NCBI GenBank assembly: GCA_963761425.1
Contig: CAVXGQ010000005.1
Location: 60,391-124,390 of the forward strand
Origin: an uncultured Acidimicrobiaceae bacterium
GTDB lineage: Bacteria; Actinomycetota; Acidimicrobiia; Acidimicrobiales; Bog-793
DNA: 64,000 nucleotides
Direction of reading: 5' to 3'
Shown: positions 1,436 to 64,000 of the stretch, piece by piece
Layout: the number at the start of each line of letters is the position of its first letter
Position numbering within the stretch: position 1 is the first letter of the stretch
Program-made: the position numbers and the translations under genes
Notes under the pieces: model-generated
What the model was told of the DNA's origin: nothing
The model's database searches: none
The model's input: only the letters and a program-made list of their open reading frames with translations

Positions 1436-2578
1436 TCACTCGAGGCGATGGCGGTCGACGACGAAGAGGACGTCGCCGAGGAGCTCGACTTCGACCCGAG
1501 TCTCGGGCGGGAAGCTGTAGGCCTCACTCGCGGGCAGCGTCGAAGTCACCTCGATTCCGCCCGGAAGGGTGGCGACCACGCGGACAATCGCCCCCAGGAA
1601 AGAAGCGCGAGCAACCCGGGCGGGCCCGTCGGCCGCCGGGCGGAACCTGATGCTCTCTGGCCGGACCAAGACGTCGACCTCGCTCGCGGTGGGGAACGTG
1701 CCGACCGCGCTGGCCGGAATCTGGAGCTGCGAGCCGAGAACGGCAACGCTGCCCGGGGCGACGACCTTGCCGGGCAGGCGGCTGACGGAGCCCACGAACC
1801 CGGCGACGAAATTCGTCGCCGGGTTCGAATAGACCTCGGCCGGCGACCCTAATTGCTCGAGCTGGCCTGCCCGCATCACTCCGACTCGATCCGAGATCGA
1901 TAACGCTTCTTCCTGGTCGTGCGTTACGAAAAGCGTGGTGATGCCCATGGAGAGCTGAATCCGCCGGATCTCGTCGCGCAGCTGGGCGCGCACCTTCGCG
2001 TCAAGCGCCGACAGCGGCTCGTCGAGCAGCAGCAAACGGGGTTCGACGCACAGCGCCCGTGCCAGCGCCACCCGCTGTTGCTGACCACCGGAAAGCTCGT
2101 GTGGATACCGTTCCGCCATCGTTGACAGCCCAACCAGCTCGAGCAGCTCCCCAGCGCGCCGGCGTCGTTCGGCGGCAGCTGTCCGGCGGACCTCGAGACC
2201 GAACGCCACGTTTTCCAACGCATTCATGTTGGGGAAGAGGCTGTAGGCCTGGAACACCATCCCGACATTGCGGCGGTGCGGGGGCGCATTAGTGATGTCA
2301 TCCCCTCCGACGAGCACCCTTCCCTCGTCAAGCTGCTCCAAGCCAGCAAGTGCCCGCAGGGCTGTCGTTTTGCCGCAACCGGACGGGCCGAGCAATGCAA
2401 CGAGCTCACCAGGTTCAATGGTGAGGGAGAAGCCGTTCAGCGCGTTGACTTTGCCGTAACTGCGACGGCAGTTGACTAGCTCGACGACAACGCCGCCGCG
2501 GCTCGGCACCTCCACTTCAGGCGGAGCGCTCGGGGGTTGCGTCGCGGTGGTCGTGGCTACCTCCTGGCGTGATCTCAA
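1436..2578 (-). CDS. ABC transporter ATP-binding protein (PotA/FbpC/MalK class)
   Basis: Walker A GPSGCGKTT, signature LSGGQQQRVALARAL, Walker B LLLLDEPLSALD and a C-terminal regulatory/TOBE-like tail. 4-nt overlap with the upstream permease gene. Confidence 0.9.
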   Translation of the reverse strand: MRSRQEVATTTATQPPSAPPEVEVPSRGGVVVELVNCRRSYGKVNALNGFSLTIEPGELVALLGPSGCGKTTALRALAGLEQLDEGRVLVGGDDITNAPPHRRNVGMVFQAYSLFPNMNALENVAFGLEVRRTAAAERRRRAGELLELVGLSTMAERYPHELSGGQQQRVALARALCVEPRLLLLDEPLSALDAKVRAQLRDEIRRIQLSMGITTLFVTHDQEEALSISDRVGVMRAGQLEQLGSPAEVYSNPATNFVAGFVGSVSRLPGKVVAPGSVAVLGSQLQIPASAVGTFPTASEVDVLVRPESIRFRPAADGPARVARASFLGAIVRVVATLPGGIEVTSTLPASEAYSFPPETRVEVELLGDVLFVVDRHRLE

Positions 2579-3435
2579 GTTGTCGCCTTTCCGAGAGGAG
2601 CGGAAGCAGCTAGCTCTACCTCATCGACCACGTCGACAAGCTCGACGCCGAAGCCGGTCTTCCGCCGTTCGCGCTTTCCCGCCCCGGCAAGTGCGAGCGC
2701 GACAAGCACGATCCAGGTGAACAACAACGCGGTGATCGACAGCGCGACCGCGACGTAGGGATTGTTGCCCTCGACGCTCACCAGCCAGACGGGAAAGGTC
2801 ATGAAACCCATGATGCTCGCGATGGCATACTCGCCGAGCGACAACGCCACCGTCAGGAAGGCCGCCGCGAGGATCCCCGACCGCAGGTTGGGTAGAAGAA
2901 CGCGGGAAAAGAGCTTCACCCATCCCGCCCCCATGGCACGGCCGGCGTCGACGAGCGTGTGAAGGTCGATGGACCGAACGCCGGCGTCGATCGCCCGATA
3001 CGAGTACGGCATGGCGAGGATCACGTAGACAAGGGCCAAGATCACCGGTGTGCCGGTAATCCATGCAGGGAAGCTTCGGTACGCGCCGAGCACACCGAGC
3101 ACGATCACCACCGCGGGCACACCGAGTGGCAGGAGGCTGGCGGCGTCGAGCACGGCGCGAAAGCGGGGAAAACGGAGGTTCACGAAGATCACCGTCGGAA
3201 CCAAGAGCGCCAAGGTGATCAGCATCGCTCCCAGGGCAACCTCGGTCGAGGTGAGCAGGCTTGTTCCCAGACCCGGCTCGGCCGCCGCTTGGGAGTAGGC
3301 AGACAACGACAGGCGTCCCTTGTAGCCCGCCTCAAGGGTGAATTGAATCGAGGCGGCGATGGGAATGAGCACGTAGCAACCGAGCAGTCCCAACACCACC
3401 CAGCGGAAGGTGCGGCCCGTCGTCACCGCAACCAC
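2575..3435 (-). CDS. ABC transporter permease
   Basis: Multi-pass hydrophobic protein in an operon with the ATPase, a second permease and a binding protein. Overlapping stop/start junctions. Confidence 0.85.
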   Translation of the reverse strand: MVAVTTGRTFRWVVLGLLGCYVLIPIAASIQFTLEAGYKGRLSLSAYSQAAAEPGLGTSLLTSTEVALGAMLITLALLVPTVIFVNLRFPRFRAVLDAASLLPLGVPAVVIVLGVLGAYRSFPAWITGTPVILALVYVILAMPYSYRAIDAGVRSIDLHTLVDAGRAMGAGWVKLFSRVLLPNLRSGILAAAFLTVALSLGEYAIASIMGFMTFPVWLVSVEGNNPYVAVALSITALLFTWIVLVALALAGAGKRERRKTGFGVELVDVVDEVELAASAPLGKATT

Positions 3436-4322
3436 CGCGCGGTCTTGCGCTGAACGATCACGTACATGGTCCCGGCGATGGCGACGATGACGATCATGCC
3501 CAGACCGAGGGCGTCACCGAGGTTCGCTTGGTTCGAGACGACGTTGCCGGCGAGCAACGCCCCGATCTCGATCGGCACGAGAGGAATCGACCCCGTGGTC
3601 AGCACGTCTGCTGTTGCGTAGGCGGCGAAGGCGTCCATGAACAGAACCATGAGGGTGGCGATGAACGGCGGGGTGAGCACGGGAAGGCCGACCTTCTGCC
3701 AGTACAGGCGGGTGCTCGCTCCGAGCGTCGCTGCCGCCTCCCGCCACTCCCGGCGGAGCGCCTCGACGGGAGGCAGCATGAGGAGGATCACGAGGGGCAG
3801 AAGAAAATAGAGGTAGACGATCACGAGCCCGGTGAACGTGAACAGGGAGAACCCGTGTAGGTAGGGATTGAACCCCATTTCGGCGAGCACGTGCGTCACA
3901 ATTCCTGCGTTCCCGATCGTGGCGATGAACGCAAACGCCAGGGGAACGCCGCCGGTATTCGCCAGCACCCCACAGCCGGTCGTGACAAGCCTCCTCACTA
4001 TCGGGCTCGGGGAGCTGACGAGCGCCACCGTCCCGACAAGACCGAGAATCGCCGCCACCACCGCGGAGATCGCTGAAAGCTCCAGGCTGATCACGTAGGA
4101 GTGCAGCCACGGCTGCTTGGTCGAGAGAACGGTCGAAAGGGTGGAGAAGGAAAGCCCGCCGTTGTTATTGCGGAAAGCCTCGACCATCACTGCCGCGGCG
4201 GGCACGATGAGGAAGAAGGCCACATAGGCGAGGAAGGGCACGAAACCGATCGCCGCCAGATAGCGGCGAACGCGCGTCCCGGGGCCCGCGTTTTTTACGC
4301 GGGCCCCGGACGTGTCGCTCAT
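3423..4322 (-). CDS. ABC transporter permease
   Basis: Hydrophobic multi-pass protein, second permease of the same operon. 13-nt overlap with the next gene. Confidence 0.85.
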   Translation of the reverse strand: MSDTSGARVKNAGPGTRVRRYLAAIGFVPFLAYVAFFLIVPAAAVMVEAFRNNNGGLSFSTLSTVLSTKQPWLHSYVISLELSAISAVVAAILGLVGTVALVSSPSPIVRRLVTTGCGVLANTGGVPLAFAFIATIGNAGIVTHVLAEMGFNPYLHGFSLFTFTGLVIVYLYFLLPLVILLMLPPVEALRREWREAAATLGASTRLYWQKVGLPVLTPPFIATLMVLFMDAFAAYATADVLTTGSIPLVPIEIGALLAGNVVSNQANLGDALGLGMIVIVAIAGTMYVIVQRKTARWLR

Positions 4323-4349: not shown

Positions 4350-5543
4350 TCAACCGACAGCCGACGCCCAATCGGAGACGATGAGCGCCTTTGCCGTGGT
4401 GGACTCACCAATGCTCGCGATGGCTGGCGGCTTGGGCAGCTTGGGAATGGCGGCCTCGGCGGCCTTGTTCACCGTGCCGTCCTTCTGCATCGTCGTGATC
4501 GTCGCGGGCACCGCCCCACCTTCGAGCCAGAGGTTCTGTCCCGTGGGGGAGAACATGTACTCGAGGAAGAGCCTCGCCGCCGCGGGGTCCGGCGCGTACT
4601 TGCTGATCGCCATCGCGTAGTACGAGGCGTACGGCGTCCCGCTCGGGATGACGATCTTCCAGTCGATGCCGGAGGCCTTGAGCTCCTGTTTCCAGGAGAG
4701 CTCGTTGTAGGTCCAGTCGATGGTCAGAAGCACCGTCTTGTCCGCCATCGGCGCGTCACCGTCACCGCCAGCTTCGACCGGGTTGTAGTTGCCCACCGAA
4801 TTCAGCTTCTGGAAGAAGCTGATACCGGGGCGAATGTTCTTTAGCGATCCTCCCTCGTTGAGCGCCGCCGCGTACACGGCCGAAAAGCCGGCGTTCGAAG
4901 ACGTGGGGTTGTTGCTCAGCCCGACGGCACTCTTGAACTCGGGGTTCAACAGACTGTTCCACGAGGTCGGAGGGGTAGTGATGGCGCTCGCGTTGTAGCC
5001 GAACGAGATCACGCCGCTGTAGTCGTACTGCCAATACCCCGCTGAGCTCTTCCAGCTTGCCGGGATCTCGTTCCACTCTTGGGTCTCGTACCTGGAGAAG
5101 ATCGGTCCCTTGAAGACGCCCGACTCGCCGTGCACGCCCTCGATGGCAAAGGAGGGGCCGACATCGACGACGTCTGGTTCATTGCTCTTGCCCTGGTTGT
5201 CGACGATCTCGCTGAGCTCCTCGGCGCTCGTCCCGCCTGGGTTGAAGTCGTTGACATGGAGGCCGTACTTCTGTCCGAAGTCCTTGATGATGTTGCCGTA
5301 ATTAGCCCATGTGGTGGGGTCGGCGGTCAGGTTAAGTGTGCCCTCTTTCTTCGCTGCGGCGATGAGGGCGCTCATGCCGCCACACGAGTTGACCGTCAAA
5401 GCGGTGGCCCAGCAGGAGCTCGACGATGCCGCGCTCGCCGTGCCGGCTGCACCAGCCGTGATTCCGACCGACGCGAGCGTGGACGCAGCGACTCCTAGGA
5501 TGGCAATCGTGCGCCACCGTCGTCCTGACCTTTTATGCATCAA
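4350..5543 (-). CDS. ABC transporter substrate-binding protein (PotD/AfuA-like type 2 periplasmic binding fold)
   Basis: N-terminal signal-like segment RTIAILGVAASTLASVGITAGAAGTASA. First gene of the SBP-permease-permease-ATPase operon. Substrate cannot be assigned from sequence. Confidence 0.8.
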   Translation of the reverse strand: MMHKRSGRRWRTIAILGVAASTLASVGITAGAAGTASAASSSSCWATALTVNSCGGMSALIAAAKKEGTLNLTADPTTWANYGNIIKDFGQKYGLHVNDFNPGGTSAEELSEIVDNQGKSNEPDVVDVGPSFAIEGVHGESGVFKGPIFSRYETQEWNEIPASWKSSAGYWQYDYSGVISFGYNASAITTPPTSWNSLLNPEFKSAVGLSNNPTSSNAGFSAVYAAALNEGGSLKNIRPGISFFQKLNSVGNYNPVEAGGDGDAPMADKTVLLTIDWTYNELSWKQELKASGIDWKIVIPSGTPYASYYAMAISKYAPDPAAARLFLEYMFSPTGQNLWLEGGAVPATITTMQKDGTVNKAAEAAIPKLPKPPAIASIGESTTAKALIVSDWASAVG

Positions 5544-50792: not shown

Positions 50793-50874
50793 GGGTCGGT
50801 ACCCAAGCGGACAACGGGAGCAGACTGTAAATCTGCTGGCACTGCCTACGTAGGTTCAAATCCTACCCGGCCCA
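50793..50874 (+). tRNA. tRNA-Tyr (anticodon GTA), class II with long variable arm
   Basis: Hand-folded. Acceptor GGGTCGG/CCGGCCC with one G-T pair, 3-bp D stem CCC/GGG, anticodon stem GCAGA/TCTGC. Loop CTGTAAA with GTA at 50827-50829, variable arm GGCA-C-TGCC, T arm GTAGG-TTCAAAT-CCTAC, discriminator A. CCA is not encoded. Confidence 0.9.
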
Positions 50875-50975
50875 CCCGTTCTAACTACCTAGTCAGAGCA
50901 GGTGCCGACACCAGATAACGACACACAGAAAGCTGGATCGGTGCGGGTTGACCGCCAAACTGACCACCAAGCGGT

Positions 50976-52139
50976 TCAATTCCCGTCGGCTGCGCTGATC
51001 CTGCCGAGTGCGCGCTCGGTCGCGTCGGCCGCCTCTCGCATGGTCGCTGGCCACACGTGGGAGTAGGTGTCCATGGTGAGACGGAACGTCGAGTGCCCAA
51101 GGACTTCCATAGCGACCCGAGGATGCACGCCTTGCGCCAGGAGCAGCGTCGCGGCCGTGTGACGGCAATCGTAGAGACGGTGACCGGTGATGCCGGCTCG
51201 CTCCGACAATTTCGTGAACCACCTCGACAGGGCGCTCGACGATAGCGGGTGCCCCATTTCTCCAGTGAACACGAGGCCGCTGTCGTGCCATTCCGAGCCG
51301 GCCCGAAGGCGCTCCTCGAGTTGCGCCGTTCGGCGAGTGCGCAGCGCCGTGACGCATTGCAGCGGTAGGGCGATCGTGCGTCGCGAGCGATCCGTCTTCG
51401 GCGGCCCGATGCTCTCGCCTCCAGGTGCACGTCTGAACGCGCGTTGCACTCGGACACACGGGTCGGGCCCGTCGAGGTCGACGTCATCCCAGCTAAGAGC
51501 TCGCGCCTCGGCCGGCCGCAAACCGAGCGCCAGGGCGACCATGACGAAGGCACCGAGTCGATCGCCCCGTGCCTGTGAGAGAAGTCGGCCAACTTCGTCG
51601 TCGCTGAATGGTCGGATCTCCGCACGACGTACCGAGATCGGCTCGACGAGCATCGCGACATTGTCGTGCACGAGTCCCCACCGCTTCGCGACCGTCAATG
51701 CTGCGCGGAGGGTCGCGTGGACTAGGCGAACGGTGTCGTCGGCTACGCCCTTCGCTCGAGTCGTGTTGATGAGTCGTTCAATGTCCGCCGCGGTCAGCTT
51801 CGCTAACGGAATGCGACCGATAACCGGGTCGATGTGCCGCCTGATGTGGCTCTCGCAATTGCGCCAGTGGCCATAAGTGCGGCGAGGTTTCACGATTTCG
51901 AGGAGCCACCGATCGAGGAACTTGTCCACGCGGGCGCGCTCATCGAGAGCCGGCTGTCCTTCAGCCAAGGCGCGCTGTGCGCGCCGCAGTTTCGACATCG
52001 CTTCGGCGCGAGTGCGCCCGTAGAAGGACTTGCGCTTGCGTTTGCCGGCGGGCCCATAGCCGACACCGACCGAACCCTCCCAGCGACCATCCGCCCGCTT
52101 TCGGATGCCGCCCTCGCCCGCGCCCCTGCGCTTCGTCAC
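50976..52139 (-). CDS. tyrosine recombinase / phage-type integrase
   Basis: N-terminal arm-binding-like GGIRKRADGRWEGSVGVGYGPAGKRKRKSFYGRTRAEA. Catalytic ALGLRPAEARAL (Arg), HRLYDCRHTAATLLL (HxxR), LGHSTFRLTMDTYSHV (His...Tyr). GTG start 52139 overlaps the upstream stop (GTGA). Confidence 0.9.
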   Translation of the reverse strand: MTKRRGAGEGGIRKRADGRWEGSVGVGYGPAGKRKRKSFYGRTRAEAMSKLRRAQRALAEGQPALDERARVDKFLDRWLLEIVKPRRTYGHWRNCESHIRRHIDPVIGRIPLAKLTAADIERLINTTRAKGVADDTVRLVHATLRAALTVAKRWGLVHDNVAMLVEPISVRRAEIRPFSDDEVGRLLSQARGDRLGAFVMVALALGLRPAEARALSWDDVDLDGPDPCVRVQRAFRRAPGGESIGPPKTDRSRRTIALPLQCVTALRTRRTAQLEERLRAGSEWHDSGLVFTGEMGHPLSSSALSRWFTKLSERAGITGHRLYDCRHTAATLLLAQGVHPRVAMEVLGHSTFRLTMDTYSHVWPATMREAADATERALGRISAADGN

Positions 52140-52447
52140 CGTGGCCCCGCATTCGAGCTGGCGAGAGCCACGATGCCCTCGGCGAGCGCACGGCGAGCCT
52201 GCGGCCACGTCGCGAGCGTCGCGGCCCGCTCGAGCAGCGCTCGCAACTCCCCGAGCTGATCGGGCACGCTCATGAGCGGGGGCGCCGCGTCACCGACGAC
52301 TCGCTTATCGAGGAGCCTCTGCCGATAGGCGGCTTGGCGGTGCGCCGGCGAGCAGTAGGAAGGGGCGGGGCCTCGCGTAGAGGGGAGCGTCAGTTTGTTG
52401 CCGCAGTGGGCGCACCGAATGGTGCGGGTTCGGTCTTGGCGAGCCAT
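52136..52447 (-). CDS. small zinc-ribbon protein translationally coupled to the integrase (candidate excision/regulatory factor)
   Basis: MARQDRTRTIRCAHCGNKLTLPSTRGPAPSYCSPAHRQAAYRQR... shows a CxxC...CxxxH motif. Its stop TGA overlaps the integrase GTG. Confidence 0.6.
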   Translation of the reverse strand: MARQDRTRTIRCAHCGNKLTLPSTRGPAPSYCSPAHRQAAYRQRLLDKRVVGDAAPPLMSVPDQLGELRALLERAATLATWPQARRALAEGIVALASSNAGPR

Positions 52448-53482: not shown

Positions 53483-53608
53483 GCCGTCCGTCTCACCGGA
53501 CACCTCCCGTCCGTCTCACCGGACACCCCCCGTCCGTCGCGACGGACTGTTTCGCATCGGCCCAGGTTATGACATGACCGTCGCGACGGACGCGGTGTCT
53601 GTCGCGAC
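53462..53608. repeat. operator-like repeat array: 3x GTCCGTCTCACCGGACA plus 3x GTCGCGAC palindromes
   Basis: 17-mers at 53462-53478, 53486-53502 and 53509-53525, each an internal GTCCG/CGGAC inverted repeat. 16-bp perfect palindrome GTCCGTCGCGACGGAC at 53532-53547. CCGTCGCGACGG at 53578-53589. GTCGCGAC at 53601-53608. Confidence 0.8.
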
Positions 53609-53754
53609 GGGCGGTGACGGAGGGTGAGAAAGAACGCCGGGCGGGTGAAGGATTGAGGCGTGCGCCTCGTACGGAGTACGGGCGTCTTCCCGTTCGGCTG
53701 AGCAGCGTGCAGCTGCAGCCTTGCGACTCGTGCTCCGAGGGACTCCCCATCGGT

Positions 53755-54045
53755 TCAGTATTCGATCGCCGCAGCCACGACTGCAGTCGCCCAATCTTCC
53801 GCGGTCGGGAGGGCGCAGTGCCGCGTCGTCTCCAGCGAGCGATGGCCGGCGAGCTCCGCCACGAGCACGACGTCAGCCCCAGACCGGACGAGCCGCGTCA
53901 GGAAGGTGTGACGCAGCACGTGCGGCGACCACCGTGCATTCGCGATCAGCGCTACACGACCGCGCGAGGGCCTTGTCCACAGCATCGGATCATCGTCTCT
54001 GAAGCTGATCGAACTGCCAGCCGGGCGTGCCTCTCTGGTCTCCAC
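53755..54045 (-). pseudogene. C-terminal fragment of a tyrosine recombinase
   Basis: HVLRHTFLTRLVRSGADVVLVAELAGHRSLETTRHC retains HxxR and the GH motif. Cys sits where the catalytic Tyr is expected, and there is no N-terminal domain. Confidence 0.65.
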
Positions 54046-54060
54046 TCCCGTGTCAGAGTG

Positions 54061-54498
54061 TCAGCCGCGAGCAGAGGTGGCGGAGCTGTGACTGGGAAGC
54101 TTCGCCACGGCCAGTGCGAGGAGCGTCATGGCGAGCGTCCAGGCGATCCAGGCGACGATGGCCAAGCGGGCGTAGTCCCAACCGGTGCCTGAATGGATGA
54201 CCGGCGCCGGTCCCAAGTCGTAGGCGCGAGGCGGGTTGTCCGCCGAAATGACCTCGACGCAGTCGTTGCCAGGGACGCCTTTCCAGCCAGGACTCGAGCC
54301 GGCGAGCTCCACCTTGTCAGAGCTCGAATGGGTTGGGGCGACGCCCGCGCACGAGGTTGACGGCCACGCACCCACGAGGGCAACTACGCCACCAACGACG
54401 AACAGTCCGAACAGGGCGGCCGCGATGGCAGCGAGAACCTGGTGGGGATAGGTGCGCCTCACCGCCGGCGAGCCTTCGCCCGAGCCAGCAGTTGTCAT
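54061..54498 (-). CDS. membrane protein, two TM segments flanking a ~70-aa extracytoplasmic loop
   Basis: VLAAIAAALFGLFVVGGVVALVGAW and LAIVAWIAWTLAMTLLALAVA. No other motif. Confidence 0.5.
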   Translation of the reverse strand: MTTAGSGEGSPAVRRTYPHQVLAAIAAALFGLFVVGGVVALVGAWPSTSCAGVAPTHSSSDKVELAGSSPGWKGVPGNDCVEVISADNPPRAYDLGPAPVIHSGTGWDYARLAIVAWIAWTLAMTLLALAVAKLPSHSSATSARG

Positions 54499-55430: not shown

Positions 55431-55500
55431 TCTGCGACCATTGTAGCTACAATTCTCTAGTCCCCGACGGCGCGGACCACGTTGCCGAGGGGTACCGCGG

Positions 55501-57226: not shown

Positions 57227-57256
57227 GCCTCGGCGGCGTCTCCGCGCCGCCGAGGC
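57227..57256. terminator. 12-bp-stem GC hairpin between convergent genes
   Basis: GCCTCGGCGGCG-tctccg-CGCCGCCGAGGC, 13 nt after the recombinase stop. No T-tract, which is common in high-GC actinobacteria. Confidence 0.55.
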
Positions 57257-57303: not shown

Positions 57304-59238
57304 TCAGCCCTCGAGTTCGGTGAGCCTCGCGTCGAGTTGCGCGATCGCGGCATCGAGCACGGCGTGGACCGCGGGCCAGTCCCATGCCGCGAGCTGCTCG
57401 TGCCCCCAGACGCGACCAGCGACGTCGACGAAGCGACGCCTGACGACGGTGCGCGTCCTTCGCGGCTGAGGCTCACCACGCACGATTCGCAACACGTCTC
57501 GCATCGTGGGGCGCGCGGCGATCTCCTCCCTGGCATCCATCGGTCTCAACACGCTGACGTCGGCGAGCACAGCCGAAGGAGGTCCGCCCGGATGCGCCCG
57601 GACCCGAGCTCGCAACTTCGACAGCTCGGCGCGCCGTCTTCGGAGCGCACGGATTTCTGCTTTTCGCTGCCGCTCGAGCGCTTCCAGCGACCGGCGATAT
57701 TCACGCTTCGCCGCCGCGGCGTCGCGCGCCGCGGCTTCGCGGTCCCGTTTGTCCCGCGCCAGCTCAGCGTCCCGACTCGCCTTCGCCTCGTCGAGTTCGG
57801 CGCGCAGAGAGCGGGCGAAGGCGACCTCGCGCGAAGCCACCGGGATGATCTCTTCCAGCGCGCCCCGGCTTCTCGCCGCGCTCGCCTGTCGCCGGACTTT
57901 CGAGAGTCGCGCTCGCAGCGCGGCGGCCTCGGCGCGTTCGGTCCGTGGCACCGTCTTGATTGTCGCAACAGCCTGATCGATCGTCGTCACAAGGCGCGCC
58001 CGTTCTCCCGTGAGCTCGAGGTCCTCATGAATGGCTGCCTGGCGCCGCACCTTCACCTCTCCACGGATCCGCTCGCGAGACTCGGTCCGGGCTCTTGCTG
58101 CCTCCGCGAGCTCCCGGAGGCCGGGCACGTCTCCGAGCTGAGCAGCGATGTCGTCAATGGGCACATGCCAGTCGGGATCGACGAGGCCCACGACGGTTTC
58201 GGTGACCGTGAGGACGTCCGTGCCAATGAAGTAGGCGAGGCCGCGGAGGTCGACACCGCTCTCGAGCCCATAGCGCGCCGCCCGTCCCAGGGTGGCGAGT
58301 TCGAGCATCCGCAGGTCGACCCGATGGCGCCCCTCGTCGGTTAGGACATGGGCGACCCGCTCAAGGATGCGGATGCAGCTTTCGCCGACCCTGTCCGTGA
58401 CCGGCCTGTAACTGTCGAGCGATAGGGTCCCTGCACCCGTTCCCGCGAGTTCTGCCGCGCGCAACCGAGCGGGGAGGTCAGGGATGAGAACCTCGTCGAC
58501 GCAGATGGTCAGGGCCCGCCGGAAGTAGGGCTTCGCGACGACGGTCGCCCCGTCGCGGGGATTCCATGTCGCCATCACGGTGCCGGCGATCCGTACGGCG
58601 GTTCCCTCGACAGGGACGACCGGGTCGCCGTGGAAGAGGATCTGCGCTTGCCGCCGGACGTCCGTATCAGCTTCGCCGAGTTCGTCTAGGCAAACGAACG
58701 GGAGCGCCAGGTGTGACGCTGGCTCGAGCGCCCAGCCACCGTCGACTTGCCAGCGCCGGCCGAAGATCTCGCCGCGAGCCAGCGCGGGGACGTCGAGGAT
58801 CGCCTCCCTCCCGAGCCCAAGCGCCCGAGCGAGCAGCTCCGCCGCCGCCGTCTTGCCTCGTCCGAGCGCGCCGAAGGCGAAGAGCGCCGGGTGGAAGGCC
58901 CGATCGGGGTACAGACGTCGAGCCACAATGAGGTCTGCTGCCAGTCGACAGAATGCGCCCAGCGCCGGCGAGGGCCCGAAGATGGCCTCCACGGCCTCCT
59001 CGAATGGCCCTTGAGGCTCGCGGACCAGGGACCGCGCTGCGGCCCGGCCCGCGTTGGTGAGTTGCGGTCGGTTCTTGGGACCGGTGACGAGACCAGCAGC
59101 ACGAAGCTTCGCGAGCCCCTCAGTGACCGATCTAGACGGCCGCCCACTCGCCGCGGCAATCTCCGTCGGCGTAGCCGTTCCCCCGAGATCAGCGAGCGCC
59201 TGCAGGACGTCGTCCCGCGCCGTCGGGCGGCTCACCAT
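57304..59238 (-). CDS. orphan wHTH / P-loop NTPase / coiled-coil protein (644 aa)
   Basis: N-terminal MarR-like wHTH DDVLQALADLGGTATPTEIAAASGRPSRSVTEGLAKLRAAGLV. Walker A-like FGALGRGKTAAAELLAR and Walker B-like LPFVCLDELGE. A long Arg/Glu/Ala-rich heptad-like region runs from about residue 400 to 560. Confidence 0.7.
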   Translation of the reverse strand: MVSRPTARDDVLQALADLGGTATPTEIAAASGRPSRSVTEGLAKLRAAGLVTGPKNRPQLTNAGRAAARSLVREPQGPFEEAVEAIFGPSPALGAFCRLAADLIVARRLYPDRAFHPALFAFGALGRGKTAAAELLARALGLGREAILDVPALARGEIFGRRWQVDGGWALEPASHLALPFVCLDELGEADTDVRRQAQILFHGDPVVPVEGTAVRIAGTVMATWNPRDGATVVAKPYFRRALTICVDEVLIPDLPARLRAAELAGTGAGTLSLDSYRPVTDRVGESCIRILERVAHVLTDEGRHRVDLRMLELATLGRAARYGLESGVDLRGLAYFIGTDVLTVTETVVGLVDPDWHVPIDDIAAQLGDVPGLRELAEAARARTESRERIRGEVKVRRQAAIHEDLELTGERARLVTTIDQAVATIKTVPRTERAEAAALRARLSKVRRQASAARSRGALEEIIPVASREVAFARSLRAELDEAKASRDAELARDKRDREAAARDAAAAKREYRRSLEALERQRKAEIRALRRRRAELSKLRARVRAHPGGPPSAVLADVSVLRPMDAREEIAARPTMRDVLRIVRGEPQPRRTRTVVRRRFVDVAGRVWGHEQLAAWDWPAVHAVLDAAIAQLDARLTELEG

Positions 59239-59284
59239 CGCATGCCGGTGCCTCTCTCGGCGGTTGCCGGTGGTGATGGATGTG

Positions 59285-59390
59285 TTGCCGATCGCCCGTC
59301 TTCGCTTGCCGATCGCATTGCGGGGAGCACGAAGCGGCCACCGATGACCAGGACATATGCGCGGAGAGCTGGAGAACTATTGCCGATCGC
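59285..59390 (+). repeat. three direct copies of TTGCCGATCGC upstream of the wHTH/P-loop gene
   Basis: Exact 11-mers at 59285-59295, 59306-59316 and 59380-59390, 47-152 bp upstream of the ATG at 59238. Each contains the palindrome CGATCG. Confidence 0.75.
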
Positions 59391-59583
59391 CGCCTCGGGG
59401 GCCCCGTCAGGCGTCGACTGGGTTCGAAGGAGGCTGTACAGAGCTCGACCCCGGATTGCGCACCGCGCGTCCGTCGCGACAGACGACTCGCGAGGCCCCG
59501 CGGAGCTCGTGACCGCGCGACCTGCGCGGCCGCGGACATAGGCGCCAACACAACATTGGACATGACACCTTGGGTAGGGAGAA

Positions 59584-60069
59584 ACCTGTCCAACCTGTCC
59601 ACCTGTCCGCGCGGGGGCGCCAACCGTGCCTTGACTAGGAGCTTTCGCTCTCGTGGCGCGCGGATAAGTTGGCCGACGCGCGGACAGGTTGAGTTCCTCG
59701 CGGGCAGGTTCACCCTTGGTCACCGGGGCCGAGCTACGACGTCGTGAAGCCCAGAAGTGGATGACCACCAGGGAGAACGCCGCTGCGGACGCCGCTGCGC
59801 CGCGCGGACAGGTTCCCCCCTGCGCGGACAGGTTCCCCCCTTGCGTAACCCGATTGACTGTCCCGCGCGGGGATCGGCGAGGGTTCCATGGTGCAACCTG
59901 TCCGCGCTGGAAGCGGCCGCTGACCAGGGAACACGCCGCGGGCGCGGACAGAGTGGCCTCTTCGCGGACAGGTCGCGGACAGGTTGAACCGCAACCTGTC
60001 CGCGGTCTGCATAGGGGGTGACCAGGATAAATGCAGCCGCAGAGCCCCGCGCGGACAGGTTGGACAGGT
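59584..60069. repeat. iteron-like field: 12 exact GGACAGGT/ACCTGTCC cores plus degenerate copies; extended consensus GCGCGGACAGGTT
   Basis: Forward cores start at 59682, 59806, 59826, 59966, 59977, 60053 and 60062. Reverse cores start at 59584, 59593, 59601, 59896 and 59994. Degenerate copies lie near 59658, 59699, 59858 and 59946. Sub-arrays have 8-9, 11 and 20-bp periods. A 12-bp-arm palindrome CGCGGACAGGTT-gaaccgc-AACCTGTCCGCG spans 59974-60004. Confidence 0.9.
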
Positions 60070-60132
60070 TTCCCTTTCCTCTCGCGAAAACAGAGAGGGA
60101 AGAAGGAACGGGTACCTGCCAGCCCGGAGCAA

Positions 60133-61599
60133 TCAACACTGCAGCTGTGGCTGCTCATCAGGATCGGCGCCGATCAAGAGAAGTCGCGACCGGTCTCTTC
60201 CGCGCCGGCCGAGTTCGTGAACGGGCACGCCGGCGGCACGCAGGTGCGGGGCGACCCGTCTGAGGCTGTTAGCCGTTTGCTGGGGCCCGGCCGGCCAGCC
60301 GCGGGGCGTTTGCCCCTGGTCGCGCCGCCGGTTGAGCTCCTCGAGGAGCGCCGCGGCCGTGCCTCTCCATGGTCCCTTTTCCCGGACGAAGTCAACCACC
60401 GCCTGAGCGAGCGCAGACGATTCCAGGACTGCAGACGTCGCGCTCTCTCGGGCAGAGTCGAGCGCACTTACCATCGTGCCCGGAGGCAATCGCAATCCTT
60501 CCTCGGCGGCGACTGCAAAGCGCGCAGCGTCAGCCATGCGGGGCGGTCGCACCAGCTCGACCGATAAAAGGTGACGCAGTCCAGAGGCAAGACCATCTAG
60601 CAGGACGCCGAACATCTGTCCCGAGTCACGTCCGAAGTCTGAGCGCAGTCGCCGTTCGTCGAGACGCTGGTCATCGGGAATTCGCGGTGCCTCAACAACG
60701 TAGGAACGATCGAGCAGATCGGGCCGGCTTGCCGCCTCGGCTATCCCAGTGAGGACAACCGGCCGCGCGCTGGCGAAGACTTCCTCCTCTCGGTCTGCGT
60801 AGAGAGTGCGCGTGCCGAACCCCTCCCCACCCGCAACACGGCACAGCGCGTCGGAGAGACGGGGCTCCATCCCCGACACGTTGTCGAACCCGAGGACATG
60901 GCCGTTGTACGCCGCGATGACCAGATCACGCTCGTCGTGAGGGAGCGCCCGCAACGGCGCCTCGGCTGGGTCCACGAGGAGACGACAGAAGCGAGCCGTC
61001 GTCGTCTTCGCTGAACCCTGTTCGCCGTAGATGACGAGCAGCGGGTAAGGACCGCTTCCCGCGAGCGCGTTCACGAGCCACGAGAGCACGAGAGGGAATC
61101 CCTCATCGCTCACGTGCAGGTACCTGCGAAGTGTGTCAACCGAGCCGCCTCGTGTCGGCGCTGGAAGCGGCCGTAGCGTTCGGGGCCGTCGAAACGGAAC
61201 GGGCGGCGCCTCGACAACCGTCCAACCGGCTGGCGTAACCACCACGGCGGAGCCGCGCTCGTCGCCCAGATCGATGATGACCTGATTCTCGGATCGGGCG
61301 ACCCGGAGAAAGACCTCGTGCTGGCCACCCTCGTGGCATGCGATCACCTCGAGCGTGCGTTGGGCGTCGCCCCAGCTCTGCCCGGCAATGACCCGCCTCT
61401 TCCCTCCTGTGGCGAGGCGATGAGCGTGGAATGCTCCGACGAATTGACGCTCGAACGCCTTTGACTCCAAGGGGAACGTGCGCACTGATTCAATAATCGG
61501 CGTCCCCACGGTGGCAAATGCGTCCCCGGAAGTGTTGTGGAAGAGCTCGAGGGAGCCCTGCTCGACCAGCGCCTCAGCGAACGCGACAACCTCCTCCAC
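60133..61599 (-). CDS. P-loop ATPase, probable replicative (SF3/primase-associated helicase-like) protein
   Basis: Walker A YGEQGSAKTTTARF and Walker B-like HVLGFDNVS. Overlaps the upstream Toprim primase gene by 26 nt. The family assignment is an inference from context. Confidence 0.65.
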   Translation of the reverse strand: MEEVVAFAEALVEQGSLELFHNTSGDAFATVGTPIIESVRTFPLESKAFERQFVGAFHAHRLATGGKRRVIAGQSWGDAQRTLEVIACHEGGQHEVFLRVARSENQVIIDLGDERGSAVVVTPAGWTVVEAPPVPFRRPRTLRPLPAPTRGGSVDTLRRYLHVSDEGFPLVLSWLVNALAGSGPYPLLVIYGEQGSAKTTTARFCRLLVDPAEAPLRALPHDERDLVIAAYNGHVLGFDNVSGMEPRLSDALCRVAGGEGFGTRTLYADREEEVFASARPVVLTGIAEAASRPDLLDRSYVVEAPRIPDDQRLDERRLRSDFGRDSGQMFGVLLDGLASGLRHLLSVELVRPPRMADAARFAVAAEEGLRLPPGTMVSALDSARESATSAVLESSALAQAVVDFVREKGPWRGTAAALLEELNRRRDQGQTPRGWPAGPQQTANSLRRVAPHLRAAGVPVHELGRRGRDRSRLLLIGADPDEQPQLQC

Positions 61600-62569
61600 G
61601 ACCCTCGGTTCCGGATCCGGCCGCGTCCGCGATGTCCCTCGGACGGGTCTCGGCGGCTGCCGGGACCGAATCGGCTGCGTCGACGCGCCGCCAGAGCTCG
61701 TCGAGCGTGCCTCTGCCGTCGAGGTAGTCGCTCACGTCCCCGTGTTCTGGCAGCTCGGGGAACGAGACGATGCGGACGTCATCGATCACCGTCCGCAGTT
61801 GCGTTGCGACCTTCAGCGCGTGTTTCCGCCCGGGGGCGTCATTGTCCTCGAGCACGGCCGCCTGCCGGAATCCCCGGAGCGCGTTCAGATCCTGAGAGGT
61901 GAACGTCGGAGAGCTCGCGAAGTGCGTCGTTGTGACGAGCCCGAGCGCCGCGAGGCGGTCGGCGTCCTTTTCGCCCTCGGTGAAGACGAGCATCCCGTCG
62001 GCTTCGCGGCCATCTCGGGCTGCGATCACCTCCGGCAGGCGGTAGATGGCGCGCTCGTCGCCGGCGTCATATCGGATCGCACCGGGACGTTCGGGATCCG
62101 GGCGTCGAATGGCGAAGGTCTTTTGGTGCTCACCGTTCGCGGCCTTGCGCTCGAAACGGACCTTTTCGCAGAGCAGGCGGTCGTCGGCACCGCGGTACTC
62201 GTAATAGGCGACCGCTTGCCAACCGTCGCCGCGGGTCCATGGTCTCGGCAGCTCAGATCGCGCAGCGAGCGTCCCCACGCCATTGCTCGAGACGGGGCCG
62301 GCGCCGGCTTCTGGCCGGTACACCGGGGGCCGGCGAACGTCGAGCGCGCTCGACGCGGCGCCGGCGCCGTCGGCCTTCAGTTGTGCCGTGACGTACTCGT
62401 CGAGTGCGTGCACGGGAATGCGCCGTGCCCGGCCGACCTTGAAGCTTCGAAGCTGTCCCGAATTGATGAGGTCGTAGATGGTCGGCCGGCTTAGGTGGAG
62501 GCGTGCGGCCGCCTCATCCACCGTCAACAGCAGCCGAGGACCGTGAACGTCTCCTGGTGTGTCTGTCAT
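61574..62569 (-). CDS. excisionase-type HTH fused to a Toprim (DnaG-like) primase domain
   Basis: HTH LLLTVDEAAARLHLSRPTIYDLINSGQLRSFKVGRARRIPVHAL. Toprim LVFTEGEKDADRLAALGL (Glu) and AAVLEDNDAPGRKHA (DxD), then LPEHGDVSDYL. Confidence 0.8.
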   Translation of the reverse strand: MTDTPGDVHGPRLLLTVDEAAARLHLSRPTIYDLINSGQLRSFKVGRARRIPVHALDEYVTAQLKADGAGAASSALDVRRPPVYRPEAGAGPVSSNGVGTLAARSELPRPWTRGDGWQAVAYYEYRGADDRLLCEKVRFERKAANGEHQKTFAIRRPDPERPGAIRYDAGDERAIYRLPEVIAARDGREADGMLVFTEGEKDADRLAALGLVTTTHFASSPTFTSQDLNALRGFRQAAVLEDNDAPGRKHALKVATQLRTVIDDVRIVSFPELPEHGDVSDYLDGRGTLDELWRRVDAADSVPAAAETRPRDIADAAGSGTEGRGGGCRVR

Positions 62570-62651
62570 GCGCGCGAGGGTTACTCCAATGGCGAGCGCG
62601 ATGGCGGATCATGCGCCGAGCCGATGTTGGATGGCATGTAACATTGTCACA

Positions 62652-62984
62652 ATGGCTGGTCGTAGTGGTGCTGCCACGCTGGAACCACTCGACATCGCGA
62701 GCGCACGGGCGCGCCTCGGTCTCAGCCTTCGCGAGCTCGGTGCCGAGGTCGGCGTCAGCAGGGCAACCGTCCAGCGATGGGAGCGGCGAGAGGCGTCGGT
62801 TCCAGATTCCCTGGAGCTCACGCTCCGCCGTCTCCTCGCGGCGGGAAAGGAGTCTCCCGAAGAGCGCGTATTGCGAATGGTCCGCCAGGCAGGCGCCGCC
62901 ACGCGCTCCGAGCTCACCGTTGCTTGCTCCGATCGGCGCGAACGACGCGCTCTCTCCCGTCTCCTCGCGGCGGAGCGCTGGTTA
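62652..62984 (+). CDS. poly-HTH DNA-binding protein, N-terminal segment (before an apparent -1 frame change)
   Basis: MAGRSGAATLEPLDIASARARLGLSLRELGAEVGVSRATVQRWERREASVP (XRE-type HTH), then ERVLRMVRQAGAATRSELTVACSDRRERRALSRLLAAER (wHTH-like). Downstream of about 62980 this frame becomes Arg/Cys-rich nonsense while the next frame continues the domain. Confidence 0.6.
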
Positions 62985-64000
62985 CGGCCGCGGTGCCCCG
63001 TCGGGACGCGCGAGGCCGTCACTATTTGCGCGAGGCCATCTGTCTGGCAGGCAGTTCGAGGGCTGCCGCCCTGCCGATTGTTTCGGGCCCAGAACTTGCT
63101 CGCGCGCGCAGGGGCGCCAGCCTGTCCATCTTCGAGCTGGCGGCGCGCCTTGGCGTCGCGCCATCGACATTGCGCGTCTGGGAAGCGACGTCGCCGCCAG
63201 CAGCTCGAGTCGCCAACCTTGCCGCGGCGCTGCGCCTCGAGGGGGGCGAACTCCGCGCCGCTCGAAAAGCGGCCGGCCTGTCCTTGCGCCAGCTTGGCGC
63301 GCGTGCCGGCGTAACCCTGTCAGTCGTCGACGCATGGGAGAGAGGCAAGCGGCCCATCCCTGCGCGTCGACTCGTCGCTCTCAGAGGAGCCCTAGCCGTG
63401 GCGCAAGAGTCTGCAGATGAGCGCCCCGCGGGGCTCGAAGAACGGATCGTCGAACTTGTGCGGCGCCGGCCAGGAAGGACGCCTGCAGACGTTCGCCACG
63501 AGCTGCGCAAGCGTCGGGCCGGTCGTTATCGCACTGGTGCCGAAACAGACCGCGCGCTCCGTCGGCTACTTCGGGGCGGTCGGATCGTCGCGGCAGAGGT
63601 GGCGATAGTCGACGGACAAGGCCGCGCGCGAACGCGCTCCCGCCTCTATGTGCCGCACGCCCGTCCGGCGTCTCGTGGTCTGAAGCTCACCGGTGATGAG
63701 CTCGGGGCGAGACGTGTTGGAGCGGGGCTAAGTCAGCAGCGACTCGGATCGGCCCTGGGGAAGACCGGCGGATTCGTGGGGTATTGGGAGCGGCGCGGAT
63801 CAGCCCCCGTCCCCGAGCCTTGGGCGGCGCGACTGCTCGAGGAACTCGCCAGCACGCGGAATCGCCCCGATCCGACCGAGTTGGCTCGTGCCGGGATCGT
63901 CTCCGCAGTAGCACAACAGCCGGGATTGTCCCGCTGGCGGCTCCAAAAGGTTGTCGGGAATGGCAATTCGGCGCGCCGCGCGCTGCACGAACTCCTGCAT
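62978..64000 (+). CDS. poly-HTH DNA-binding protein, continuation (open at window end)
   Basis: Absent from the ORF track because there is no stop before 64000. My translation reads ...LVTAAVPRRDARGRHYL..GPELARARRGASLSIFELAARLGVAPSTLRVWE..GGELRAARKAAGLSLRQLGARAGVTLSVVDAWERGKRPIP. It continues ..ERIVELVRRRPGRTPADVRHEL...ALRRLLRGGRIVAAEVAIVDGQGRARTRSRLYV..GDELGARRVGAGLSQQRLGSALGKTGGFVGYWERRGSAPVP.. This gives three more XRE-HTH units and at least one more wHTH-like unit. Confidence 0.6.
   Translation, partial: MVTAAVPRRDARGRHYLREAICLAGSSRAAALPIVSGPELARARRGASLSIFELAARLGVAPSTLRVWEATSPPAARVANLAAALRLEGGELRAARKAAGLSLRQLGARAGVTLSVVDAWERGKRPIPARRLVALRGALAVAQESADERPAGLEERIVELVRRRPGRTPADVRHELRKRRAGRYRTGAETDRALRRLLRGGRIVAAEVAIVDGQGRARTRSRLYVPHARPASRGLKLTGDELGARRVGAGLSQQRLGSALGKTGGFVGYWERRGSAPVPEPWAARLLEELASTRNRPDPTELARAGIVSAVAQQPGLSRWRLQKVVGNGNSARRALHELLH

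Follow-up and report, generated by a model that had tools for sequence, protein, structure and literature searches.

A predicted DNA-binding AAA+ ATPase with a phased box array upstream of its gene, in actinobacterial tRNA-integrated islands

Gene X and its locus

We analysed a 64,000-nucleotide (nt) stretch of DNA from an uncultured Acidimicrobiaceae bacterium (contig CAVXGQ010000005.1 of assembly GCA_963761425.1), here called the window, and in it a 644-amino-acid (aa) open reading frame (ORF), here called gene X. Comparison with related loci strongly supports a place for gene X among the core genes of actinobacterial tRNA-integrated islands that have their own replication module and several tyrosine recombinases. 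Family profiles and a structural model also give strong support to the prediction that its product is an AAA+ ATPase, closest by sequence to the MoxR/AAA_5 class, that binds DNA sequence-specifically and has a private phased array of boxes in its own promoter.

Read along the strand of gene X from high coordinates, the island holds a regulator with multiple helix-turn-helix (HTH) motifs, a replication gene, an iteron field, the box array, gene X and the long tyrosine recombinase IntL (Table 1); beyond IntL the same direction leads through a Phd/PIN toxin-antitoxin pair, the remnant of a ~320-aa recombinase and a 410-aa integrase to the tRNA gene. Gene X looks coding: its GC content at the three codon positions is 0.77/0.54/0.78, a pattern that the neighbouring genes share. 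The gene is intact, and alignment with its relatives extends over the full length. Since codon periodicity is absent from 59240-60130, we take this stretch to be ~900 bp of non-coding DNA, and a 308-aa ORF lying over the gene X promoter region (59232..60158) was rejected as a gene for the same lack. Two distinct repeat systems occupy the non-coding stretch, the iteron field and the box array of gene X; a consensus promoter scan found no sigma-70-type site. The hairpin at the other end of the gene, between convergent gene X and IntL, is from its sequence likely to be a two-way terminator for the pair; it is GC-rich and has no T-run after it.

Table 1. Features of the window, with the iterons of related loci (positions are those of the window unless a locus is named; residue numbers are those of the gene X protein)
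Feature	Position	Strand	Basis or detail
Gene X: winged helix, AAA+, helical stalk and C-terminal domain	57304..59238	-	ORF translation, ATG start, full-length homologues, AlphaFold model
MarR-like winged helix, residues 7-60; recognition helix ~35-47	59059..59220	-	Pfam MarR_2/TrmB/IclR; Foldseek and PDB profile matches to MarR and DtxR regulators
AAA+ module, residues 116-346	58201..58893	-	Conservation, PDB profile search, Foldseek, Pfam AAA_5, model secondary structure
Parts of the AAA+ module			Walker A 123-130 (GALGRGKT); Walker B 181-186 (FVCLDELGE, 181-189); sensor-1 N226; Arg pair R240/R241; helical lid 255-346
Helical stalk, residues 374-544, Ala/Arg/Glu-rich	57607..58119	-	Model helices, composition
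C-terminal domain 'type A', residues 554-644, small, mixed	57307..57579	-	AlphaFold model
Box array of gene X	59263..59390	- (strand of gene X)	Exact copies, geometry common to related loci
Upstream box GCGATCGGCAA	59380-59390		Exact copy
CCTGGTCA	59345-59352		
Box	59306-59316		Exact copy
Box	59285-59295		Exact copy
Degenerate box CCACCGGCAAC	59263-59273		
Iteron field, ~15 copies of AACCTGTCCGCG in both orientations	59578..60075		13 AACCTGTCCGCG-like copies within 59592-60061 and partial copies at both edges; lower-GC patches flank at 59540-59599 and 60060-60119
Replication gene: excisionase-type HTH, Toprim and ATPase	60133..62569	-	Pfam, NCBIfam, PHROGs; two ORFs in the window (331 aa, 488 aa)
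Multi-HTH (XRE-type) regulator, divergent, runs off the window	62559..64000	+	
IntL, long tyrosine recombinase, 564 aa	55520..57214	+	Pfam Phage_integrase; orthologues by gene X in L001, L004, L007, L014, L017-L020 and L023
Perfect 12-bp hairpin between convergent gene X and IntL	57227..57256		
410-aa tyrosine integrase at the island edge	50976-52208	-	
tRNA-Tyr at the island edge	50793-50876	+	
Iterons of L006 (DUF3987 locus)	L006 8342-8559		GCGCGAAAAG
Iterons of L013 (DUF3987 locus)	L013 ~3430-3650		GCGGCGAAAG
Iterons of L014 (DUF3987 locus)	L014 ~4370-4700		GCGAAGAAA
Iterons of L016 (DUF3987 locus)	L016 ~2570-2750		GCGCGAAGAG
Iterons of L023 (DUF3987 locus)	L023 9527-9618		GCGAAGAAA

Domain architecture and ATPase class

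An AlphaFold model built from an 80-sequence alignment (mean predicted local distance difference test (pLDDT) score 93) supports a domain order of winged helix, P-loop, coiled coil and C-terminal domain, the order that an earlier note had proposed from the letters alone. The ORF is confirmed, on the minus strand and with an ATG start, and the same note had correctly described the GALGRGKT and FVCLDELGE motifs and an Arg/Glu/Ala-rich segment. With 11 sequences, AlphaFold had given the ATPase part pLDDT values under 50, and Foldseek on that model returned MarR proteins only.

Pfam and the model assign residues 1-110 to the winged helix and two linker helices. The matches of gene X itself to MarR_2, TrmB and IclR are weak (residues 10-60, E ~1e-3), and other members of the family reach 1e-8. 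Two beta-hairpin inserts, such as MoxR/AAA_5 proteins have, are modelled in the AAA+ core, one in helix 2 at 160-173 (strands 160-165/168-173) and one before sensor-1 at 207-216 (strands 207-210/213-216). The stalk consists of 22% Ala, 22% Arg and 13% Glu, and its three long modelled helices (374-426, 432-453 and 458-544) have lengths that suggest a folded-back arrangement; a conserved patch at ~427-463 (columns I427, V430, P431, A438, R442, L445, R449 and L461) spans helix breaks, among them residues 454-457, where the second helix gives way to the third. Nowhere in the protein is a 20-residue stretch strongly hydrophobic, the maximum being 10 of 20 residues I, L, M, F, V or W. The C-terminal domain is of two types in the family, A (the type of the window) and B, and a profile of it had zero matches among PDB sequences.

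The pattern of conservation strongly supports an ATPase that retains the residues for hydrolysis in an oligomer. Invariant in all 80 aligned family sequences are G123 and K129 of Walker A, N226 of sensor-1, and R241; near-invariant are D185 and E186 of Walker B (77/80), T/S130 (79/80), R240 and R161 (76/80 each) and R162 (73/80). By the earlier note's own test, P-loop residues that varied among homologues would have refuted its reading; with K129 at 80/80 they are conserved, and the reading is not refuted. The conserved Arg, which precedes strand 5 in the model, would act between subunits.

Single-sequence searches (Pfam, NCBIfam, PHROGs, PADLOC and PDB sequences) recognised only the winged helix and gave no full-length named family; the gene X protein alone has no AAA Pfam match. 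The family as a whole is more informative. Its profile matches midasin (4e-10), ClpC D2 (1e-7), ClpB D2 (down to 1e-5), RFC, and NorQ and CbbQ (~1e-4 to 1e-3) among PDB sequences, and Pfam assigns AAA_5 to 20 of 42 members (best E 3.6e-6), AAA_3 to 4/42 and MarR_2 to 21/42. Foldseek aligns ~330 AAA+ columns to MCM (3f8t, E 1e-5, template-modelling (TM) score on the target 0.41), to MoxR-type ATPases (2r44, NorQ, CbbQ), to BrxL (rank 29) and to Cch (5dgk, E 1.5e-3), with 6sko_6 at TM 0.58; against viral models it finds generic AAA+ and helicase cores only. MoxR-type proteins score as well as MCM in Foldseek, and there is no Pfam MCM match. These results point to the MoxR/MCM structural group of AAA+, with MoxR/AAA_5 closest by sequence, and to a predicted protein in which a winged helix is fused to a hydrolysis-competent, oligomer-type AAA+ module.

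The MoxR/AAA_5 class (NorQ, CbbQ, RavA, midasin), to which the best sequence-profile and Pfam matches belong, has in common with gene X the GxxGxGKT motif, a GRR in the helix-2 insert, hhhhDE, an 'NP' after sensor-1 and the Arg pair before strand 5. Its members are, however, protein remodellers of ~250-330 aa, without a DNA-binding domain and with a usual VWA partner, whereas gene X adds the winged helix, a 170-residue stalk and the C-terminal domain. Gene X thus represents a new architecture and module built from an ATPase class already known, and the full architecture is unnamed. The claim that the protein belongs to no named family accordingly stands for its full length and yields for the ATPase module, whose class is recognisable, with MoxR/AAA_5-type AAA+ the closest by sequence.

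Gene X had also been called an orphan, wrongly: an exhaustive profile search gave 421 cluster representatives (50% identity) at E<=1e-3, of which 143 also pass E<=1e-30. Almost all are 640-720 aa long. A word-indexed homologue search found 10 full-length relatives (46-54% identity); repeated with the 80-sequence alignment it returned the same 11 proteins, and with a trimmed ATPase-only alignment none. The probable cause is the low-complexity stalk, which would flood the word index. The family members that we looked up are metagenomic and unnamed. A scan of GTDB genomes gave a single metagenome-assembled genome, IMG/VR gave no relative, and the phage and plasmid collections searched hold no relative of gene X or of IntL.

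A phased box array and its predicted reader

Three repeats that the earlier note had seen in the promoter region are exact, and belong to an array of gene X's own. They are copies of TTGCCGATCGC (Table 1), of which no other exact copy occurs in the window. The array consists of a box, 26 nt, the word CCWGGTCA, 29 nt, and then three to four boxes spaced 21, 21 and 22 bp; 21 bp being two helical turns and 74 bp seven, all boxes lie on one face of the helix.

An array was found upstream of gene X in at least 10 related loci. Its geometry (74, 21, 21, 22 bp) is identical in the window, L006, L013, L014, L019 and L023 and recognisable, if looser, in L001, L004 and L017; in L024, with a gene X protein of 33-34% identity, a different word, ATCGCTACG, recurs with 21-bp phasing. 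Five copies of the 9-mer box, all inside the array and all oriented with the gene, are found in L023 (22 kb), L006 (19 kb) and L014 (15 kb), the three longest loci and those on which array-only occurrence of the box rests. Where a whole gene, for an integrase or a methyltransferase, parts the array from the iterons (L006, L013, L017-L019), the array remains with gene X.

The winged helix is most likely the reader of these phased 10-11-bp boxes (GATCGGCAA) directly upstream of gene X. Good indirect evidence for this comes from residue 40, in the recognition helix, which co-varies with base 8 of the box. It is Arg in five loci with GATCGGC-C-AC (P0004, P0005, P0008, P0011, P0013), and Glu, Asp, His, Tyr or Ala in six loci with GATCGGC-A-A (P0001, P0002, P0003, P0006, P0009, P0010). 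P0004 has closer relatives that show the alternative state, and so does P0005, which makes three or more independent switches likely.

We also note some further features of this region: (i) CCWGGTCA keeps its position in the window, L006, L013, L014, L019 and L023, and in L017 with 27 nt for 26; the window's iteron field contains two more words like it (59921-59936 and 60019-60034). It could be a promoter element or the site of another protein. (ii) The boxes include GATC and CGATCG. In four loci the array is directly preceded by a gene for a DNA methyltransferase, namely L017 (5258-6553), L018 (153-1454), L019 (675-2051) and L021 (3-287), identified by Pfam N6_N4_Mtase in L017-L019 and in L021, where only the gene end is present, by a methyltransferase-like motif only. 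As speculation, box binding might be methylation-dependent. (iii) The operator-like word GTCGCGAC that the earlier note had placed in the promoter region is indeed present at 59473-59480, but is not enriched in the window (12 found against 7.4 expected; 8 of 100 shuffles reach 12), and as a single copy of an unenriched word we rejected it as an operator of the gene X promoter. Three GTCGCGAC palindromes within 73 bp at 53536-53608 (spacing 44 and 21 bp) lie within the island, just ahead of a weakly coding ORF, 53614-54192.

The islands and their replication modules

The island of the window runs from 50.9 kb onward, where GC content at third codon positions drops from ~0.92 to ~0.74; contigs of other metagenome runs diverge at 50875. 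The same plan was seen in every related locus fetched (L001-L003, L004/L005/L009, L006/L012, L013/L022, L007/L010/L011, L014, L016-L021 and L023), and in L004 host genes flank a ~16-kb element that holds little besides the genes of the plan. Gene X holds its place in every related element type while the replication module is swapped, which bears out the suggestion that it is a factor for the island. Of the neighbours proposed for it, tyrosine recombinases do co-occur, and the Toprim/ATPase pair is replaced in other elements by DUF3987 and AAA_25 types.

Three types of replication module were observed: (i) Toprim-ATPase, in the window and L004, with an iteron word of its own in each locus; the window gene is 47-49% identical to a fused 726-aa protein of L004, and homologues are found on small Streptomyces, Methylobacterium and Methanothrix plasmids. 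(ii) A small DnaB-N-like protein with DUF3987, in L006, L013, L014, L016 and L023; these loci have a GCGAAGAAA-like iteron core in common (Table 1), with proteins only 44-52% identical. (iii) AAA_25, in L007. In each locus the iterons directly follow the replication gene. Because iteron sequence follows replication-gene type across loci, we assign the iteron field to the replication gene, and it is probably the origin that this gene serves. The field that had been noted beside gene X is real, but goes with the other gene, and we rejected the large iterons as gene X sites for this reason.

A large multi-XRE-HTH protein (500-756 aa) starts every element, divergent from the excisionase and replication genes (L001 4348-6393; L004 4752-6254; L006 4164-6218; L007 286-2433; L023 5131-7401), and is probably the element's master repressor. 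Two genes of the window could be checked against contigs from four public sediment and soil DNA metagenome runs that cover the region. Contigs of all four runs have an extra C after 62969, which restores the multi-HTH regulator (at least 481 aa, from 62559 to the window end); the frameshift of the window at that point is probably an assembly error. Base 61627 is absent from runs X1 and X4, which gives a single 811-aa protein with excisionase-type HTH, Toprim and ATPase, and X2 has the window version; the difference (61574-61676) reflects a mistake in assembly or else true polymorphism. No excision joints were seen in the contigs of the four runs. Of the ~320-aa recombinase only the C-terminal ~90 residues are left in the window (53755-54045).

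Association with tyrosine recombinases

In all 10 locus types with a type-A C-terminal domain, the next or next-but-one gene is IntL (555-626 aa); IntL of the window scores best against XerC, XerD and XerA models. In L006 and L013, where gene X is of type B, a recombinase of 307-334 aa is encoded just upstream instead. P0050 (L024/L025), a distant type-B protein 34% identical to P0009, has the orthologue of this recombinase just downstream, the type-B recombinases being 54-58% identical between L006 and L024; in L024/L025 the replication gene lies several kilobases from gene X. From these type-A and type-B loci it follows that array, gene X and matching recombinase travel together across long distances, and that adjacency to the replication gene does not hold. 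This makes a link between gene X and the recombinase suggestive. An imperfect inverted repeat of 15 nt brackets IntL of the window (55462-55476 and 57241-57255); with DNA this rich in GC, it may have arisen by chance.

Proposed function and its alternatives

We tentatively favour, without calling it probable, a reading of gene X as a self-regulated AAA+ factor that assembles on the box array and works with the adjacent recombinase. Several copies of the protein would bind to the array and, with ATP, build an oligomer that would both repress the gene X promoter and form a nucleoprotein platform. From there the stalk and the C-terminal domain may contact the adjacent tyrosine recombinase, and ATP turnover would assemble, activate or dismantle the recombination complex. 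Candidate reactions are the control of excision and integration, or multimer resolution of the excised replicating circle. A bolder form of the proposal, which we think unlikely, would make gene X the first AAA+ partner of tyrosine recombinases: docked on an 'arm-like' array, it would hold or activate the recombinase through its stalk and C-terminal domain, so that the functions of lambda integrase would be split over two proteins, with C-terminal types exchanged together with recombinase types.

Known systems offer partial parallels. Hexameric FtsK, which bears a winged helix, controls XerCD, and hexameric ArgR and PepA on accessory DNA act at the cer and psi sites. FtsK resembles gene X as a winged-helix motor controlling an Xer-type recombinase, the type that IntL best matches, but has a RecA-type motor and a membrane anchor, whereas gene X has no FtsK Pfam match and no strongly hydrophobic stretch; ArgR and PepA, unlike gene X, are not ATPases. 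We identified no recombination core site near the gene X box array. The transposition proteins IstB, MuB, TnsC and TniB are likewise element-encoded AAA+ proteins beside a recombinase gene that act on DNA to control recombination, the role proposed here for gene X. Their partners, however, are DDE transposases and they belong to other AAA+ groups, whereas the neighbours of gene X are tyrosine recombinases; no profile of a transposition ATPase (IstB/MuB/TnsC) was matched in the Pfam or PDB-sequence searches.

Several points weigh against the recombinase-partner proposal. Array binding, ATP hydrolysis, oligomer formation and recombinase contact are all predictions from sequence and model. MoxR-class ATPases usually act on proteins, and usually with a VWA-domain partner; VWA families are absent among the neighbours of gene X in every locus examined. 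A tyrosine recombinase with an AAA+ partner would, to our knowledge, be without precedent. Each ~16-kb element has two to four recombinase genes, and adjacency alone is weak evidence. IntL lies downstream on the same strand in the other type-A loci and is inverted, and so convergent with gene X, in the window. The match of C-terminal type to recombinase type comes from about three independent lineages, the gene neighbourhoods cover ~13 of the 421 clusters, and the co-variation of residue 40 with box base 8 (Fisher's exact p=0.002, 11 loci) is calculated with shared ancestry ignored.

A rather doubtful alternative, and the one that survives best, is maintenance of the excised circle as an episome, with gene X as its replication initiator or loader, or its partition factor, and the array as a second origin or a centromere-like site. 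The setting would suit such a role: there is one site, beside the gene of an NTPase with its own DNA-binding domain; the direct repeats at 21-22 bp are like classical 22-bp iterons; the 63-bp gap of the array is among the lowest-GC spots of the region (0.55); and a close clade has gene X beside the replication gene and origin. Analogues are plasmid Rep on 22-bp iterons, E1 and large-T, Cch and SaPI Rep, and a centromere upstream of a partition NTPase. Each element, however, already has a helicase/primase-type replication gene with its own iterons, whole genes part these from the array in the loci listed above, and in L024 the array is far from the replication gene.

Comparison at the protein level divides in the same way. 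MCM gives the best Foldseek matches, with Cch also listed, and the MCM-like self-loading helicases (Cch of SCCmec, Rep of SaPI; PMC7581432 and PMC9371898) have in common with gene X the broad AAA+ structural group, residence in integrative elements, nearby recombinase genes and a sequence-specific DNA-binding domain. Gene X differs from them in lacking an MCM-type N-terminal (OB-fold) domain, in the N-terminal position of its DNA-binding domain, in its long stalk, and in that its elements already hold another helicase/primase gene with iterons; nor is there a Pfam match to MCM, DnaA or Cdc6. Iteron-binding plasmid Rep and archaeal Orc1/Cdc6 also place a winged helix on direct repeats about two turns apart by their own gene and are self-regulated, but plasmid Rep has no ATPase, and in Orc1/Cdc6 the domains run in the opposite order and the AAA+ module is of a different group. 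Orc, Cdc6 and DnaA are absent from the best 60 PDB profile matches and from the 25 Pfam families listed for members. ParA has a deviant Walker A, KGGxxK[ST], whereas that of gene X is the classical GxxGxGKT, which speaks against a ParA-type partition factor; the earlier note had rightly set the protein apart from ParA, and had rightly stated the reversed order relative to Orc/Cdc6 with the winged helix N-terminal. By sequence and model, gene X falls outside the definitions of Orc1/Cdc6, DnaA, ParA, FtsK/TraB and MarR-type regulators.

It is improbable, in our estimate, that gene X is purely a regulatory switch, that is, an ATP-dependent transcription factor that represses itself and controls a downstream recombinase operon, with a stalk and C-terminal domain that sense a signal and have no mechanical role. 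A MarR-like winged helix and boxes in its own promoter and nowhere else are what such a switch would have, the conserved CCWGGTCA could be a promoter element, and in L004, L017, L019 and L020 the recombinase gene is next on the same strand after gaps of 30-125 bp. Yet MarR regulators are small dimers (~150 aa), and in gene X the winged helix takes up the first 60 of 644 residues, in an ATPase whose hydrolysis and oligomer residues, kept in 80 diverse sequences, go beyond the needs of a simple repressor. The match of C-terminal type to recombinase type suggests protein contact, and in the window the convergent recombinase is not co-transcribed with gene X.

Least likely by far is defence cargo, an NTPase sensor or effector against phages or plasmids carried by the island, as the earlier note had also suggested: coiled-coil AAA+ ATPases are indeed known from defence systems, such as the McrB-like CoCoNuT proteins (PMC11090510), BrxL stands at Foldseek rank 29 and a DNA methyltransferase gene lies directly upstream in four loci (L017, L018, L019 and L021), but the PADLOC matches are weak (E 0.01-0.02) and limited to winged-helix parts of the Csa3 and PRTase models, Pfam shows no nuclease or other effector domain, there is no fixed partner gene, gene X has a private binding array in its promoter, and it is constant and fixed in place where defence cargo varies between related elements.

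Significance

If these readings are correct, they define a widespread protein family, so far unnamed and found almost only in metagenomes, with more than 400 clusters. They would also describe a family of small actinobacterial islands with a modular plan, made of a regulator, an excisionase, a swappable replication gene with its iterons, gene X with its array, and several recombinases. The co-variation of one helix residue with one base would amount to a testable DNA-reading code. Should gene X prove to be no more than a self-regulated AAA+ maintenance factor, the family could still be named and placed in annotation. The partnership with the recombinase, if true, would mean an ATP-driven control layer on tyrosine-recombinase elements, of a kind known for DDE transposons and not for these.

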